Origin: a virus
Lineage: Duplodnaviria; Heunggongvirae; Uroviricota; Caudoviricetes
IMG/VR virus record: IMGVR_UViG_2713896906_000007
Location: 1 to 40,423 of that record
DNA: 40,423 bases
Reading direction: 5' to 3' (one strand)
This document shows, one piece after another, positions 1 through 9,180 of the stretch (position 1 is its first letter; each line of letters begins with the position of its first letter). Position numbers and translations under genes: made by a program. Under the pieces are notes generated by a model, which made no database searches, had not been told where the DNA came from, and saw only the letters and a list, made by a program, of their open reading frames with translations.

Positions 1-135
1 TCAAAACATGTAAAGCCTTGCAAGCCATTGTGAGGCCTTATGTGTCTCAGTTTTGTCCCACCTTGTATTATGACTTGCATAGCCAATGAAGATAAACGTG
101 ACGACAAACAGCGCAGCAGTTTTCTTTTCCTTCAT
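1..135 (-). CDS. Small hypothetical protein (44 aa) with hydrophobic N-terminus; below the ORF-track size cutoff
   Basis: Manual minus-strand translation gives MKEKKTAALFVVTFIFIGYASHNTRWDKTETHKASQWLARLYMF with ATG at 133-135 and stop at 1-3. No homology recognised. Confidence 0.25.
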   Translation of the reverse strand: MKEKKTAALFVVTFIFIGYASHNTRWDKTETHKASQWLARLYMF

Positions 136-324
136 ACTTTCCCCACCCAGCATGCATACCTTCCACCATAACTGTAGTGAATGTCTGTTATGAGCGAAAA
201 GCAGACTGTTACGTGTTGAAGTTAATTGTATTTCTTAGGTAAACACTATCATTTTCCTGACGTTAAGTTGTATCTTTGATAGGATTAAAAAATGTATAGA
301 TAACTTATACTACTGAGGAAAAAA

Positions 325-1134
325 ATGACGCAAATTAGTGAACGATGGAAGCACAATGGCATTACTAAAGGTTATTGCAATATTTGTGGAAAATATGACT
401 TCCTCACAAAAGATCATGTTCCTCCAAAGTGCGCCATAACCTTAGGTCCTGTTCTTCAGAAAACAGTTAGCGAATTTTTTGGTGTTCAGGAACCAGTTAA
501 ACCATTAAATGCTAAAAACGGTTCTTATTTCAAAACCATTTGCAGCAACTGTAACAATAAGGTGTTAGGTGGACTCGACGTTGCAATTGAAAATGTAGCA
601 AAGTCCTTTAAAGAACAGTTGAGTCAATATATGAATGGTATGAATGTATATCCATTCATTAGAATACCTTTTGATAGCATATCTTTCACTAAGGCTATGA
701 TTGGACACGTGCTATCGGCAACTTCAGTTGAAGATTGTAAAAAAGAACCCGTAGATAGCCCCTTCTATACACCTTTAAAAGATTATGTTTTGGATAAAAA
801 TCCAAGTTTTGAGGAGACTCATGATATTTACTACTGGTTTTACCCACACAGAATGCACATATCAGCTCAAAGTGTAGCATTTATGAACGAAGGACATGTA
901 GCATTTATTTGTGCTTTACATTTTTTTCCTATCGGTTTTATTATCACAATTAAAAATGAAGGAATATACCCTGCCCACTCAACAAAATTAGAACTTGAAG
1001 ATAAATTCCTTACATTTAACATGACATCTGTAAATTATGAGTATACGACATTTCCATTTGTAAATCTTAAGGGAAACCAAATGTATGCTATAAGCAACGG
1101 CCATACATGTGTGAGTTATCCAATAATTAAGTGA
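325..1134 (+). CDS. Hypothetical cargo protein with N-terminal Cys-rich HNH-like motif and a ~180 aa C-terminal domain of unknown function
   Basis: ATG at 325 preceded by GAGGA with 5-nt spacing. N-terminus reads CNICGK-x8-DHVPPKC ... CSNCNN, resembling a zinc-ribbon HNH nuclease core. AT-rich composition unlike phage structural genes. Occupies the position of mcrA in K-12 e14. Confidence 0.6.
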   Translation: MTQISERWKHNGITKGYCNICGKYDFLTKDHVPPKCAITLGPVLQKTVSEFFGVQEPVKPLNAKNGSYFKTICSNCNNKVLGGLDVAIENVAKSFKEQLSQYMNGMNVYPFIRIPFDSISFTKAMIGHVLSATSVEDCKKEPVDSPFYTPLKDYVLDKNPSFEETHDIYYWFYPHRMHISAQSVAFMNEGHVAFICALHFFPIGFIITIKNEGIYPAHSTKLELEDKFLTFNMTSVNYEYTTFPFVNLKGNQMYAISNGHTCVSYPIIK

Positions 1135-1161
1135 CTGCCAGATCATACAATCGACGCATGT

Positions 1162-1509
1162 TCACTTTCTACATATACCATCTATAATGTCCGCTCTTGG
1201 CACGCAGGGGACCAACCAGCTGGTCCTCAGGTCCGATATGAGCGAGAAGCTGAAATTTGCAGTTGTTCCCAAAGTCGATGGAGGAATTTTTAACATTACC
1301 GTGTATTTATCAACGGAGAGCAGGTCACTCTCTATGGTTCTCGCATTATTTGTTAACAAAATAACATATTCTTTTGCTTCATCGATAGTATTGAATATCA
1401 TAACTTTCCCACTTAACATCGATATCTGCGGTAACTGATTAACACAAAGAAATTCATCCAATAGCAGAGAATAACTTTGAGTTTTAGATTTTAAAAAACC
1501 TTCATCCAT
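1162..1509 (-). CDS. Small hypothetical protein overlapping the 3' end of the PIN-TM gene; possibly co-transcribed
   Basis: ATG at 1507-1509 overlaps the PIN gene stop (1491-1493) by 19 nt. No homology recognised. A competing plus-strand ORF (1187..1438) covers the same DNA, so coding status is uncertain. Confidence 0.3.
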   Translation of the reverse strand: MDEGFLKSKTQSYSLLLDEFLCVNQLPQISMLSGKVMIFNTIDEAKEYVILLTNNARTIESDLLSVDKYTVMLKIPPSTLGTTANFSFSLISDLRTSWLVPCVPRADIIDGICRK

Positions 1510-2333
1510 AATGTTTCGAGTCTTGTGCCAATCACACCTTTTCCAATGTTATCCAGCCCTCGAACCATTGCGTATAAGCCACCTAATATTTGAATCCCTT
1601 CCTTTATACCTAAAGACGAATAGTCAAAAGTTGGAAAGAGGACGTAATAAGACATAATTACCCCAATACAAAACTCGAAAACTCCATAGGAAAGACGGAA
1701 ATTTTCTCTATACCAAAATAGTATGAGTCCTAAAACGGGCAAACCCACCATTGTCCCCCAAACTGTAATGGTAGATACCAGAACCTCTATATTGGAATAG
1801 ACGATGTTTGCGACTAGAGAAGCAAGCCCGCCGAGCGCAAAACTGGCTTTTAGGTAACGCTTTTGAGATGAAACAGCTTTTTCTGCTTTCTCTTCTATTT
1901 CTTTATTTAGAAAATCGCCTTTGCTTTCATTTATAAACTCAATGCCAGTCATAGATGTAATATTCCGACTAGCAAGAAAATAAGACAAGGCACGATCATT
2001 GGTCACGACGCAAGGAACTTCTTCTCCTTGCCGTTCTGCGTAAGAAATAGCTATTCGAGCAATATCAAAGTCTGCCCCAGTCAAACGCTGAGCATTTCTA
2101 TCGGATTGGAAGAGGTCGTTTTTTATTTTTTCAGGCGCTTCAACTATGAGCACACCAGCGGGAATTGACGAGGCCACTAAATCAGTAATATCTGACCATT
2201 TGTTGCTTTTCCCTCTATATGAAAGCTCATGCATCACAGCTCTTGGGATAACTAGCTTCCGATTTCCAGCTCTAGACAATATCTCCGGATGCTGCAATAA
2301 AACATTAGTATCAATTATGTATCTGCTTGGCAT
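1491..2333 (-). CDS. PIN-domain protein with C-terminal multi-pass transmembrane region
   Basis: N-terminal ~130 aa has PIN-like acidic motifs (IIDTNVLL ... VVTNDRAL). C-terminal ~120 aa has several long hydrophobic stretches. ATG at 2331-2333 with AGGGA 7 nt upstream. AT-rich. Confidence 0.65.
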   Translation of the reverse strand: MPSRYIIDTNVLLQHPEILSRAGNRKLVIPRAVMHELSYRGKSNKWSDITDLVASSIPAGVLIVEAPEKIKNDLFQSDRNAQRLTGADFDIARIAISYAERQGEEVPCVVTNDRALSYFLASRNITSMTGIEFINESKGDFLNKEIEEKAEKAVSSQKRYLKASFALGGLASLVANIVYSNIEVLVSTITVWGTMVGLPVLGLILFWYRENFRLSYGVFEFCIGVIMSYYVLFPTFDYSSLGIKEGIQILGGLYAMVRGLDNIGKGVIGTRLETLWMKVF

Positions 2334-2671
2334 AAGCTATCCCTGATACCTTAATTTATCAAATATAACAGTATGTAAACATATAAAACATAACTTCACA
2401 ACTCACTTATCGCTGCAAGTTTCCCACCCAGACAAGCCATGTGCTTAGATATCTGACCTAACGTTTCTAAAGTGATGAATGTCCGCTATTGGCACATAGC
2501 AGTCCTAGAGACAGTGTCGTAAAGTCATGGAGGATCGGTGGGAGGATATTCAGTTTCATTCATGCCGAAATACGGTAAAATCTATAACAGATAGAAATCA
2601 TTCAATATTCGCACTATCAGAAGCTGGCCAGCCAGCCGCAGCACTTTCTTGCATACGACGAGCCTGCGGTT

Positions 2672-3226
2672 TCATTTATCTCCGACCGGAAACTTCTTAT
2701 ACAGTGTCGATACACCAACATCATAGATGATCGCCACCTTCTGGCGAGGAATTCCTGCTGCAATTAATCGTCCGGCCTGCGCCCATTGTTCTGGTGTAAG
2801 TTTGGGACGACGTCCACCAATTCGTCCCTGTACGCGAGCAGCTTCCAGTCCGGCTTTTGTTCGTTCAACAATCAGTTCACGCTCCATTTCAGCCAGGGCA
2901 CCCATCACATGGAAGAAAAAACGCCCCATTGGTGTACTGGTATCAATTGAATCCGTCAGACTACGAAAGTTGATACCTCGTTCGCGCAGCTCTTCCACCA
3001 GCACGACAAGATGCCGCATGCTGCGACCGAGTCGATCCAGTTTCCAGACCACCAGAGTGTCACCTGCCGATAATGTCCTGAGCAGTTTTTTAAGTCCCGG
3101 CCTTTCGGACTTTGTACCGCTTATCTTGTCTTCAAAAATCAGCTCGCATCCTGCACAGTTCAGCGCATTACGTTGTAGATCTGTGTTCTGGTCATTTGTT
3201 GACACACGTACATAGCCAATAAGCAT
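2672..3226 (-). CDS. pin: Serine DNA invertase (Pin/Gin/Hin/Cin family)
   Basis: Protein MLIGYVRVSTNDQNTDLQ...DTLVVWKLDRLGRSMRHL...GGRRPKLT is near-identical in motif content to e14 PinE. Start moved to the ATG at 3224-3226 (GGGAG 8 nt upstream); the track ORF begins 12 codons earlier. Confidence 0.9.
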   Translation of the reverse strand: MLIGYVRVSTNDQNTDLQRNALNCAGCELIFEDKISGTKSERPGLKKLLRTLSAGDTLVVWKLDRLGRSMRHLVVLVEELRERGINFRSLTDSIDTSTPMGRFFFHVMGALAEMERELIVERTKAGLEAARVQGRIGGRRPKLTPEQWAQAGRLIAAGIPRQKVAIIYDVGVSTLYKKFPVGDK

Positions 3227-3281
3227 GGTAGATCTCCCTGACAAAAGCAGGAATGATGCCATTTGCTCGTTATTTCTGCAT

Positions 3282-3307
3282 TTTCATAAACGTTGGTTTG
3301 GGAGAAG
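3282..3307. repeat. Left crossover site of the Pin-invertible segment (gix/cix-like)
   Basis: ttggtttgggagaag at 3294-3308 is the exact reverse complement of 5201-5215. The core aaacc-NN-ggttt is typical of Gin/Cin/Pin sites. Lies just upstream of the pin start. Confidence 0.6.
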
Positions 3308-6092: not shown

Positions 6093-7141
6093 GAAATCGT
6101 CCCCAGTACCGCCAGTTCATTTTTTGCAATGGAGATATTGTCTGCCGGTGCAAGCAACTGATGGCTGTATTCCCCGTTCGCACCGGAAATCGCCTCACTG
6201 ATACGCGATACCTTCAGTTCTCCCTGCGGATAACCATCACGCAGCAGGAACGAACGCAACTCCGCGGTGATGGCAGCCCGTATTTCCGGTGTGTCCGGCG
6301 TCACGCGGATATGAAAATCCACCGTATGTGCCACCGGCCTGAACACATACAAATCAGAGCCTGCCACCGGGGCCAGTGGCCCGATATGTTGTCTTGCCGC
6401 CGTTTCCGTTGATTCTTCCGGAATGGGATTAATCAGGTCACTGCCGGCAATCATCACACCGACAGTCCCCGTTCCCATCCAGTGACGGTATGTCCATGCG
6501 CGGGTAATGCCGGGCACTTCTTTAGCCCAGACGACATAGTCCCCGTCAGCCCCACCCTGAGGCGTCCAGTAATACCGCTCAATGACGCGGGCGCGCCACG
6601 TTTCCAGATCTTCAGTATCGAATCCGCCAGTCAGGGTATCTGCCACACCGGAAGACGGCAGACCATTCACCGGCGTGACCAGGATTAATGCCGTACCGTC
6701 GTCAGCGTTACCGACCGCACCTGCACTTGAGCAGGCGATCGGCACGCGCAGGACACCACCGGAGCTGGTTGCATCGGCAGTTGCCGTGTACTGAACCAGG
6801 TCATCGCGCTGAATAACACTCCCGGCAGTCACCTTCAGGCCATCGCTGACACCTTCCCAGCGCATATACCCGCTGGCAGCCGTGGCCCCCTTGCGCGGAC
6901 ACCGTTTCATCGCAGCATGTCGCGCCAGCCAGGACTCATCGCACAGGTCAGGCAGCATGTTCATTGCCAGATAATCGATGTAACCGTAAACCGTATGCAG
7001 CGCCGCCGCATACACCTTTGCCCGCACGTCTTCATCCATGCGCCGGAGCGTGTCGCTGACGTCCAGCCTGGCGAATAAATCGTTACGGAGCATACTGATA
7101 TTTTCTGCCAGCGTCGGGCGTTGAAATTCACTGTCCGCCAT
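6083..7141 (-). CDS. Baseplate J-like protein (Mu gp47 / JayE-like)
   Basis: 352 aa. Order and size match the baseplate J family. Overlaps neighbours as in a translationally coupled operon. Confidence 0.8.
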
Positions 7142-7556
7142 GCGTTATCGCACTCCACAGATCATCAAAAGAAATCATTACCGGTCCGTCACGACGCCAG
7201 AGAGTGATACTGTTACCCAGTTCATTAATCCCGGTGCGGCGGATATCCAGATCAATACGGGACACCACGCCGTCATCAATCATCCATTGCAGGCATTCGC
7301 GGATATACCCCCTTACCGTCTGCACCAGCTGATTGGTCAGTTTGCTGCGCTGAAGCAGCCACAGCCGGGAGCCGTAACGGTCATTCTGTACCGCAGGCCA
7401 GGTATCCCCCCACCATCCCATCGGGACGTCGGCGTTGTCATCAGGCTCCGCCCGCCGCCAGGTAAACAGGGAAATCACCACGGCGCGGGTCAGCGGATCC
7501 AGCTGTGCGCTGGCGCAGGTGCGTTTACCGTTCACCGTCAGCCACAGTTCCATCAT
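7128..7556 (-). CDS. Baseplate protein, GP46 / P2 W-like
   Basis: 142 aa located between the spike and J homologues. Confidence 0.7.
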   Translation of the reverse strand: MMELWLTVNGKRTCASAQLDPLTRAVVISLFTWRRAEPDDNADVPMGWWGDTWPAVQNDRYGSRLWLLQRSKLTNQLVQTVRGYIRECLQWMIDDGVVSRIDLDIRRTGINELGNSITLWRRDGPVMISFDDLWSAITHGGQ

Positions 7557-8101
7557 GCCTCCATCGCTTTATCAGGTTTGTCGGTGTTACTGCCCTGACC
7601 GTTCTCTCTGTGACGATGCCCGTTATAAGCAAGCCGCATCGCTGACATGGTGGTGCCGCCGGAGTCGCACAGGTCTTTCACCTGTCCTGTCACTTCCAGG
7701 TCCATTTCAAAACGTGCTTCAGGTGCATTGCGAAACGTAATCGTTTTACCTGCACCGTCCACCACGATCCCCTCCCGGGTCAGCGTCACAGACTGCCCCT
7801 GATCGTCATAGACAGCCACCTCACCCGTCTGCAGCCCTTTCAGGCGGTAACGCCGATCCGACACCGTAACAACCACCGCATGAGAACGGTCACCATCCGG
7901 AAACAACACCACCGCTTCCGCACCGCTGTTTGCCCTTGCGGTAAAACCGTAAGGTTCAAGATGTTCAACCCCGGCTTTGGGTTCACCGGCAATCAGGGAC
8001 ACATCCACGGTCTGACATTTCGTGGCGGCACTGATGCTTTTCACCACGGCCCGCCCAATCAGCCCGAGGAGTTGTCGCTGTATGGTTTCAATCGCCCTCA
8101 T
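7553..8101 (-). CDS. Baseplate assembly protein V / spike (Mu gp45-like)
   Basis: 182 aa in the Mu-like order after the gp44-like gene. Confidence 0.7.
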   Translation of the reverse strand: MRAIETIQRQLLGLIGRAVVKSISAATKCQTVDVSLIAGEPKAGVEHLEPYGFTARANSGAEAVVLFPDGDRSHAVVVTVSDRRYRLKGLQTGEVAVYDDQGQSVTLTREGIVVDGAGKTITFRNAPEARFEMDLEVTGQVKDLCDSGGTTMSAMRLAYNGHRHRENGQGSNTDKPDKAMEA

Positions 8102-9180
8102 CAGAACGGGTCCTCCTGTACTCTGGCTTTTTTCTTTTTCCGCGCGCCGGGATCTTCGGGTTCAGGCAGATAAGCATCAGGCGGGCCGACACGGATTTCC
8201 GTCAGGGTGCCGTTCTGGTCCTGAGTAAACGTGACTTCCGAAACAAGCAGTTCGGTATTGTCGAAACCACAGACCGGATCAAAGACAATCACCCGCTGGT
8301 TGGGCTGCCACAGCGTACCGTTACCCTGTCGCCAGCCCTGCACCACATAGGTGGTTTCATCCGTCCGCGCCGCCCGTTGTCGGGCTTCAAAGTCAGCACG
8401 CGCAATACAGCCTGCCCCCGTGGCCTGCCCTGTCTGCCTGATATACATCGGACGGTAACGGGCAATAAATGCGTCCTCTGTGCGGGCCCGCAGCGCGGTG
8501 GTGGTGGCCTCACCGAAATCATCGTCGTTTCCGGCACGCTGCCCCGCCACCTGGTAAACTGAAAACCGCTCCCGGATACTCTTCTCCGTATCGCAGGAAA
8601 GGATGTTTTCCCCGAGTACCAGCGCGGTATGTGCCCGCGTTGAGCCAATACCGCCAATCACCAGCCTGCCGTGCGGGTCGTCGTAAGCCAGTGCCTGCTG
8701 CTGACCGAGTATTTTGTTGATTACCTCAATCACCGTTTCACCGTGATCAGGCTGGACGTCAGGAATAACACCCGACGGCGCACCGTTGTTCACCACCTCA
8801 ATGCCGAAGGGCGCAGCAAGCGCCTGCGCAATCTGTACCAGCGATCGTCCGTTAAACTGTGTCGGTTCGGCTGCACAGTCAATCAGATCAGCGGTCAGAC
8901 TGCGTCCGGCAATACCGGTGCTGACCGAACGGGCATCGTAACGAACGGGCGTCGCCTCCACCCAGCCGGTGATCACCAGCTCATCACCAATCAGCACTTC
9001 CACTTTTGAACCGTTTTTAATGCGCGGCTGAAGCGTGGTGATACCCTCATCTCCCGGCCACTGGCGGGTGATCTCCACACTGAAATCCCGCGCCAGTCGT
9101 TCAACACCGGCACCGATGCGCACCGATGTCCAGCCATTCCACTCCCGGCCATTTACCCGTAACGTGACGTTATCGTTCAT
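8101..9180 (-). CDS. Baseplate hub / tail protein D-like (Mu gp44-like)
   Basis: 359 aa. Syntenic with Mu gene Q. Confidence 0.7.
   Translation of the reverse strand: MNDNVTLRVNGREWNGWTSVRIGAGVERLARDFSVEITRQWPGDEGITTLQPRIKNGSKVEVLIGDELVITGWVEATPVRYDARSVSTGIAGRSLTADLIDCAAEPTQFNGRSLVQIAQALAAPFGIEVVNNGAPSGVIPDVQPDHGETVIEVINKILGQQQALAYDDPHGRLVIGGIGSTRAHTALVLGENILSCDTEKSIRERFSVYQVAGQRAGNDDDFGEATTTALRARTEDAFIARYRPMYIRQTGQATGAGCIARADFEARQRAARTDETTYVVQGWRQGNGTLWQPNQRVIVFDPVCGFDNTELLVSEVTFTQDQNGTLTEIRVGPPDAYLPEPEDPGARKKKKARVQEDPF

Follow-up and report, generated by a model that had tools for sequence, protein, structure and literature searches.

The window analysed here, that is the whole stretch of 40,423 nucleotides (nt) of viral DNA making up IMG/VR record IMGVR_UViG_2713896906_000007, corresponded to a full-length e14-like prophage of E. 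coli; it carries baseplate genes of the Mu type, ymfQ, genes for tail-fibre assembly and the invertase gene pin, and an integrase lies at the far end. Positions 1–2500, on the distal side of pin, were occupied by two genes designated A and B, each bracketed by the short repeats m2 and m1, and by an additional open reading frame (ORF), C. The features of this region, with protein lengths in amino acids (aa), are as follows.

1..216, no strand assigned: conserved segment bordering the cargo slot on its distal side, matching 3,621 of 5,426 complete E. coli genomes
183..205, plus strand: m2 to the left of cassette A (GTCTGTTATGAGCGAAAAGCAGA), a direct repeat of 1231–1253
325..1134, plus strand: gene A, 269 aa (phrog_21495); the N-terminal part (about residues 14–85) is a zinc-ribbon HNH-like (His-Me finger) region, and the C-terminal domain has no assigned fold
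1162..1509, minus strand: ORF C, 115 aa, sharing 19 nt with the end of B
1186..1203, plus strand: m1 (AATGTCCGCTCTTGGCAC) at the right edge of cassette A, present on the same side of A in its P2-like, lambdoid and plasmid copies
1231..1253, plus strand: m2 at the left edge of cassette B, a direct repeat of 183–205, found on the same side of B in E. coli ZH177
1491..2333, minus strand: gene B, a 280-aa PIN_4 protein with a conserved C-terminal membrane domain
1494..1853, minus strand: membrane domain of B, residues 161–280, four helices
1926..2333, minus strand: PIN domain of B, residues 1–136, with D8, E36, D88 and D113
2478..2495, plus strand: m1 at the right edge of cassette B, adjoining pin, a direct repeat of 1186–1203 at 94%
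2672..3262, minus strand: pin, a serine DNA invertase and the anchor of the slot, matching Resolvase (E = 1e-50) and HTH_7

A and B are independent, horizontally acquired single-gene cassettes and do not constitute one system. The segment carrying A (positions 191–1221) was found at about 95–99% identity in 141 of the 5,426 complete E. coli genomes (about 2.6%), in 29 places on plasmids, whereas gene B was present in a single genome of this set, that of ZH177. A occurred without B in 140 genomes, and B occurred without A in ZH177 and at all distant loci; the entire arrangement of positions 1–3300 was found in none of the complete genomes and in several draft genomes. Since A lies on the plus and B on the minus strand in convergent orientation, the two cannot be co-transcribed. 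With distributions as different as these, A and B, noted as facing each other in an earlier reading of the DNA letters alone (hereafter, the sequence-only reading), are not a functional pair.

Both genes were enclosed in the same order, m2-gene-m1 (m2 = GTCCGATATGAGCGAGAAGCTGA, m1 = AATGTCCGCTCTTGGCAC), and the same order was detected around unrelated cargo. The m2 repeat to the left of A was also present in a lambdoid prophage and a plasmid, and the m1 repeat to the right of B was also present in ZH177. At the junction of the two cassettes m1 is followed by 27 nt and then by m2. Cargo bracketed by m2 and m1 was seen in e14-like, P2-like and lambdoid prophages and on one plasmid; the e14 element of K-12 contained neither repeat. 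The A/B junction folded no better than shuffled sequence (z-score of 0.02), and with this value and the lack of an Rfam match a structured cassette site was rejected. The recurrence of the bracket suggests that cargo travels as bounded cassettes between unrelated elements.

The 115-aa frame to which the sequence-only reading had drawn attention is indeed open at positions 1162..1509, but it did not prove to be a conserved gene. In ZH177 it is interrupted by a 1-nt frameshift at 96% DNA identity, no counterpart was found beside any other B homologue, neither a Shine-Dalgarno sequence nor a family match was detected for it, and its last 26 codons (the 3' end) cross the m1/m2 boundary sequence. 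ORF C is probably not a gene, and its role as a partner or antitoxin of B was ruled out by the frameshift, the absence elsewhere, the missing Shine-Dalgarno sequence and the overlap with the boundary motifs.

Residues 5–121 of the B product matched the Pfam PIN_4 model (PF13638) with E = 3.8e-11 and 43.8 bits against a curated cut-off of 21.9, whereas the classic PIN family gave only E = 0.19. The homology search returned 106 clusters, nearly all of them 275–290 aa long and full-length, and the AlphaFold2 model based on a 39-sequence alignment (predicted local distance difference test score, pLDDT, of 83) displayed the alpha/beta/alpha fold of PIN domains. D8, E36, D88 and D113 were nearly invariant across the 39 sequences and were retained at most of the distant genome loci, with one or another of them substituted in a few lineages. 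The PIN-like N-terminus proposed for this protein was thus confirmed by the profile hidden Markov model search and by the conservation of the acidic residues, which are predicted from the sequence to form the PIN metal site and to confer nuclease activity. The PIN_4 group includes single-strand RNA endonucleases such as SMG6, Dis3, Nob1 and PhoH2.

No recurrent neighbour family was detected near B in an all-against-all comparison of 22 loci, save in one Alphaproteobacterial clade. The only candidate for a conserved operon partner, an aspartate aminotransferase gene, was confined to that clade and was rejected. B was likewise rejected as a VapBC-type type II toxin–antitoxin system, as no neighbour was homologous across the 22 loci and ORF C was not conserved, and as a type III system with an RNA antitoxin, as neither a flanking tandem or ToxI-like repeat nor an Rfam match at E ≤ 1 was found. 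The sole Tandem Repeats Finder match in the vicinity of B lay inside the gene and had the minimum score.

The C-terminal part of B contains four hydrophobic segments (residues about 161–181, 190–208, 214–236 and 246–257) preceded by a charged linker helix. Lysine and arginine numbered six in the linker, two in loop 2 and four in the C-terminal tail versus none and one in loops 1 and 3, respectively, a pattern that fits the positive-inside rule and a topology with both termini inside the cell. Mapping by hydrophobicity and by these counts agreed with the hydrophobic C-terminal segments noticed in the sequence-only reading. The membrane domain was better conserved than the PIN domain (mean identity of 62% versus 50%), and a motif spanning residues 246–266 had a mean column majority of 91%. 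Y216, E220, G224, G252, Y254, R258, G259, D261 and N262 were invariant even in a Dyadobacter homologue of 23% overall identity. Conservation of this degree implies that the domain is more than a plain membrane anchor.

No Pfam model covered the membrane domain of B and no pore or holin family matched it beyond noise; an assignment to PF26425 that is precomputed for one B homologue did not reappear in the Pfam search and was dropped. A profile of the membrane domain alone, run against a library of 1.84 billion proteins clustered at 50% identity, retrieved 1,918 cluster representatives at E ≤ 0.001, with relatives spanning Proteobacteria to Bacteroidetes. Nearly all of the best 150 matches were about 280 aa long with the domain beginning near residue 140, and seven of ten distant relatives matched PIN_4, two of these only at or just below the cut-off. 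On the grounds of length, domain position and the PIN_4 matches in distant relatives, the joining of PIN and membrane domains is a fixed architecture. Four representatives (P0199, P0203, P0256 and P0302) were only 110–150 aa long with the domain spanning almost the whole protein; these could be stand-alone membrane domains or fragments from short metagenomic contigs.

The neighbourhoods of B homologues were varied. In ZH177 B lies alone in a P2-like prophage remnant, between a tail-fibre assembly gene and a residual tail module, and the adjoining gene (locus L001, positions 6838–7746) encodes a 302-aa SIR2 protein matching the ThsA- and LmuA-type SIR2 models of PADLOC with E = 1e-10; this SIR2 gene had no visible partner genes. 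The Chlorobaculum homologue is located in a conjugative element beside a Gabija-like pair and a RelE module, and the Pseudomonas homologue in an element with an adjacent retron-type reverse transcriptase and its STM3845 partner. The Halarcobacter gene adjoins RES and DUF6414 genes, the Pectobacterium gene belongs to an integrase/relaxase element, the Paraglaciecola gene adjoins a reverse transcriptase and a ParE/Phd toxin–antitoxin pair, and the Aeromonas gene forms a one-gene islet between trpA and ydjM. Two viral loci of B were found. When 136 ORFs neighbouring B at 18 loci were scanned once with PADLOC, a qualitative survey with no background rate for comparison, strong matches were obtained to retron reverse transcriptases (two), GajA (two), AbiLi-like proteins (three), MADS components (three to four) and Cas1 (two). 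In four Reyranella assemblies and one labelled 'Rhizobium', a 261-aa B homologue whose acidic PIN residues are all intact starts about 10 nt after the aspartate aminotransferase gene in a conserved neighbourhood, the sole context found for the family that did not look mobile.

The family of A comprised 82 clusters, almost all of 268–278 aa, and the architecture of about 270 aa was kept down to 22–30% identity. Existing annotations are limited to 'metal-binding protein' or 'chaperonin', and phrog_21495 has no functional label. The motifs C18xxC21-x8-D30H31VPPK and C73xxC76N77 lie in the N-terminal third, where C21, D30-H31-V-P-P, C73, C76, N77 and D85 were invariant among 37 members and C18 nearly so; beyond this third H128, W171, Y173, P174, F200, P202 and P244 were invariant. 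In the AlphaFold2 model (pLDDT of 92, predicted template modelling score of 0.91) a strand at residues 24–31 ending in D30-H31 is followed by a strand at 68–73 and by a helix at 74–81 that begins with the CxxCN motif and contains N77. This predicted order fits a beta-beta-alpha metal finger.

The native sequences of the A family gave weak matches to HNH_5 in 26 of the 37 members and to Endonuclease_7 in five, and A itself did not reach the Pfam cut-offs of HNH, HNH_5 or Endonuclease_7 (12 bits for HNH_5 versus 27.5). The only match of its N-terminal profile among PDB sequences was the HNH endonuclease 4H9D, with E = 1.3 and both motif halves in order. When a 20-residue loop was excised from A, a query of our own design, 4H9D was again the sole match, now with E = 0.003 over 50 uninterrupted alignment columns. 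With the loop removed in this way, 22 of 23 family members matched HNH_5, 16 matched HNH and 11 matched Endonuclease_7 (best E = 1.8e-5), A itself scoring 17.2 bits with HNH_5, still under the cut-off. The two CxxC pairs of A, which flank the central motif in the manner of a zinc site, both aligned with the CxxC pairs of 4H9D. The whole-length profile of A had no match among PDB sequences, and two fold searches of the model against PDB returned no neighbour and no HNH domain. Of the earlier description of A as an HNH-like Cys-motif protein, the motifs at their positions, their conservation, the weak but specific sequence matches and the strand-strand-helix order all stood, whereas neither a Pfam cut-off nor a fold neighbour was obtained. 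To judge by these sequence features A is quite likely HNH-like, the probable structure being a zinc-ribbon His-Me finger whose loop is expanded, though it is not a confirmed member of the group. Homology of A to McrA was rejected (hhalign probability of 1.6% over only 15 columns), as was a relationship of A to the HNH protein in the corresponding slot of strain VTB97584v, also by hhalign.

A was mainly phage-borne. It was detected on 46 viral contigs at 29–98% identity, in P2-like, lambdoid and filamentous-phage backbones, and within 5 kb of the contig end in 13 of 28 large contigs. In the P2-like phages pro147 and PEC1012 A is present alone, between the tail sheath and the tail-fibre assembly genes, the slot that holds B in ZH177; in a lambdoid prophage it lies between hokD and replication genes, and it also occurs on a plasmid. 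The P2 hotspot analysed by Rousset et al. 2022 is the gpA–gpQ region and not this tail-fibre/sheath slot. Among homologues of A, the Vibrio gene occupies the end of a filamentous prophage and adjoins a gene for a DUF2726 protein, the Plesiomonas gene shares an island with AbiU2, Shedu (SduA_C) and PLD-nuclease genes, and the Pseudomonas gene lies in an island delimited by a serine recombinase. Close alleles of A share the m2/m1 flanks in unrelated backbones, and their insertion contexts vary widely.

The placement of both genes in the slot that holds mcrA in K-12 was supported by several observations. In other genomes DNA homologous to pin carries the pinE annotation, and the K-12 gene order is stfE, pinE, mcrA and the end of e14; from the pin anchor and this order, positions 1–2500 were taken as the counterpart of the mcrA slot. 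The G+C content over these positions was 0.32–0.43 versus 0.50–0.61 in the structural genes past 5 kb. Composition, pin match and K-12 order agreed with the sequence-only reading, in which an AT-rich pin-distal region had been assigned to this slot. The listed pin ORF has 196 aa and gene callers report 184 aa in identical loci, and the true start is probably the internal Met of MLIGYVRVS.

With pin and the conserved segment 1–216 used as anchors, the slots of e14-like prophages were compared, and each of the six sampled carried different cargo:

K-12: mcrA
F9792: a '4-fold beta flower' protein and an unrelated 279-aa protein
D3: beta-flower protein, insertion sequences and a DUF262 protein
VTB97584v: an HNH protein, a DUF6650 protein and a LEM-3-like GIY-YIG protein
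23CRST025: three hypothetical proteins
this window: A and B

The comparison bore out the notion of the prophage end as a hotspot of variable cargo. The 279-aa protein of F9792 was excluded as a relative of B (BLASTP E = 2.9). In VTB97584v the three candidate nuclease or defence genes are consecutive (locus L006, positions 6261–8975), and DUF6650 is among the domains newly implicated in defence by DefensePredictor (PMC13092281).

Segment 1–216 had no annotated feature beneath it, and the cargo to its right varied by strain. It was present in up to four copies per genome, some of them plasmid-borne, and in strains D9 and DLI.5a it adjoins paoD and a LysR-type pseudogene followed by differing cargo, which in DLI.5a is a type II restriction-modification system. 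Instead of belonging to the prophage, the segment may mark a site of chromosomal integration or of cargo; no transfer RNA gene or att repeat fixing the prophage boundary was found inside the window. At positions 32974–33048, within a 313-aa ORF (32405..33346), five tandem 15-nt repeats (CAGATTTTGACGGGT-like) were noticed, which look like origin iterons inside a lambda O-type replication gene.

From these contexts we infer a role in defence for both genes. In the reading preferred here, to which about even weight is given, the slot holds two independent acquired cassettes, most likely stand-alone nucleases engaged in competition between phages and other mobile elements. B would be a protein of the inner membrane with four membrane helices and both termini on the cytoplasmic side, and its cytoplasmic PIN_4 domain a magnesium-dependent endoribonuclease. 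As a toxic RNase without an antitoxin, B would have to restrain itself, and the lack of an antitoxin together with the strong conservation of the membrane domain makes this domain the probable regulator. It probably keeps the nuclease silent and, on a disturbance of the membrane by infection or on binding of a phage protein, may release or assemble the PIN domain, so that RNA cleavage would lead to translation shutdown and growth arrest. A would be a zinc-stabilised His-Me (HNH-type) DNA nuclease with an expanded beta1–beta2 loop, in which target recognition would fall to the C-terminal domain, one of novel fold. DNA as the target of A is suggested by the His-Me-like region and by a slot that elsewhere holds McrA, DUF262, HNH and GIY-YIG proteins, and A would be the functional analogue of McrA and the other nucleases of this slot.

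Several results weigh against such roles in defence. No model of PADLOC-DB v2 (5,027 models, 2023) matched A, B or C at E ≤ 1. Helices 1 and 4 of B are only moderately hydrophobic, the survey of its neighbourhoods was qualitative, the gene is rare in E. coli, and the Reyranella/'Rhizobium' context next to the aspartate aminotransferase gene looks housekeeping-like. Neither A nor B is mentioned in the searchable literature or in the DefensePredictor supplements, which, along with the PADLOC result, upholds the earlier statement that no named system fits.

The main rival for B reverses the roles of its domains, the membrane part being the killer, a pore or ion channel that collapses the membrane potential, and the PIN domain a sensor of nucleic acids or a regulator. 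In line with it, the membrane domain is the most conserved part of the protein, the membrane-embedded E220 is invariant, R258-G-x-D261-N262 is constant down to 23% identity, and acidic residues of the PIN domain are missing from some members (three have A at position 8, and two Dechloromonas/Azonexus loci have K36/A88). All four acidic residues are nevertheless kept in most members, and no pore or holin family was matched beyond noise; this rival is considered unlikely. A similarly low likelihood is given to the main alternative for A, a free-standing selfish HNH endonuclease of the homing type that spreads by its own mobility at no benefit to the host. Such an element would account for a single HNH-like gene that is mainly phage-borne (46 viral loci) and whose short m2...m1 flanks recur in unrelated backbones, but the same bracket surrounds B and other non-HNH cargo, the insertion contexts are heterogeneous and do not correspond to one cognate site, A is often located at prophage ends or in chromosomal islands with Abi and Shedu genes, the usual places of cargo, and its 270-aa architecture stays uniform down to 22–30% identity.

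One or both genes might instead serve the prophage or the host outside defence, B for example as a membrane-associated RNase of RNA processing and A as a non-catalytic zinc-binding regulator. The conserved position of the Reyranella homologue, the bare annotations of A as a 'metal-binding protein' or 'chaperonin', the absence of defence-database matches and an HNH region lacking structural confirmation would all accord with this. It is judged improbable in view of the patchy distribution of the genes (1 and 141 of 5,426 E. coli genomes for B and A, respectively), their location in mobile elements and defence islands, their AT-rich composition and the conservation of catalytic-type residues in both families, the PIN acidic residues of B being nearly invariant. 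Far less credible still is one multi-gene system made of A, B and ORF C, such as two nucleases with a small immunity protein. The three are neighbours here and in several draft genomes, and ORF C and B overlap by 19 nt; against this, A and B are convergent, each occurs without the other and each has m2...m1 repeats of its own, and ORF C has a frameshift in ZH177 and no counterpart elsewhere.

If A and B are stand-alone defence nucleases, they would be new variants of kinds already known, as PIN- and HNH-based defence and membrane-coupled abortive systems have been described. The closest precedent for B is DS-3, a validated single-protein PIN defence without an antitoxin that requires its catalytic residues (DefensePredictor, Science 2026, PMC13092281) and for which auto-inhibition until infection was proposed by its authors (PMC13092281). 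Both are single genes that encode a PIN ribonuclease domain, and neither has a cognate antitoxin; compared by description, DS-3 differs in having 340 aa, a PIN domain split between the N- and C-termini and no membrane domain described. Unlike VapC, B has no adjacent antitoxin, its domain is PIN_4 (PhoH2/SMG6/Dis3-type) and not classic PIN, and it carries a 120-aa membrane domain. YacL, the PIN/TRAM protein of Firmicutes, is encoded by a core gene and has N-terminal membrane segments, a PIN_4-type domain and then TRAM. B resembles it in the joining of a PIN_4-type domain to transmembrane segments, but in B the membrane domain is C-terminal, TRAM was not matched and the gene is mobile cargo. In lambda RexA/RexB a membrane component is coupled to a cytoplasmic partner in membrane-sensing abortive infection. 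Kiwa similarly combines a multi-pass inner-membrane component, KwaA, with the cytoplasmic partner KwaB and responds to membrane changes caused by phage (PMC11785009). The likeness of B to Kiwa and RexAB is one of concept, a membrane component coupled to a cytoplasmic partner, with sensing by B a proposal; both are two-protein systems with no PIN nuclease, and B had no match to PADLOC models, those of Kiwa included.

For A the natural comparison is McrA (EcoKMcrA), a zinc-type HNH nuclease acting alone. The two share the slot beside pinE and a similar length (269 versus 277 aa), but in A the domain order is reversed, with the HNH-like region N-terminal, no sequence relation is detectable and the other domain has no known fold. 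In the Gmet_0936-type HNH endonuclease 4H9D the elements GxCxxCG...LTxDHxxP...CKxCNN align with A in order; 4H9D is, however, a 112-aa single-domain protein in which about 16 residues separate DH from CxxC, versus 42 in A.

A more far-reaching interpretation joins two claims. B would be the founding member of a large family of immune proteins, so far unrecognised and each made of a single polypeptide, in which the four-helix module with its intramembrane glutamate and RGxDN motif senses the entry of the phage genome or a perturbation of the membrane and licenses the tethered PIN RNase; and the m2...m1 cassettes would represent a means, not described before, of exchanging single defence genes among P2-like, lambdoid and e14-like phages and plasmids. 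That both claims are correct is regarded as a speculative and rather doubtful proposition.

Confirmation of B as a defence gene would establish a new architecture of PIN immunity, an inner-membrane nuclease held by a conserved domain without a Pfam model, and would offer an experimentally tractable one-gene model of how events at the membrane are relayed to an effector in the cytoplasm. A, for its part, would be a further nuclease, and for its specificity domain no related structure has been solved. Exchange of the same single-gene cassettes links the pin-distal end of e14-like prophages with the tail-fibre/sheath slot of P2-like phages, and both slots are for this reason worthwhile places in which to look for new systems.

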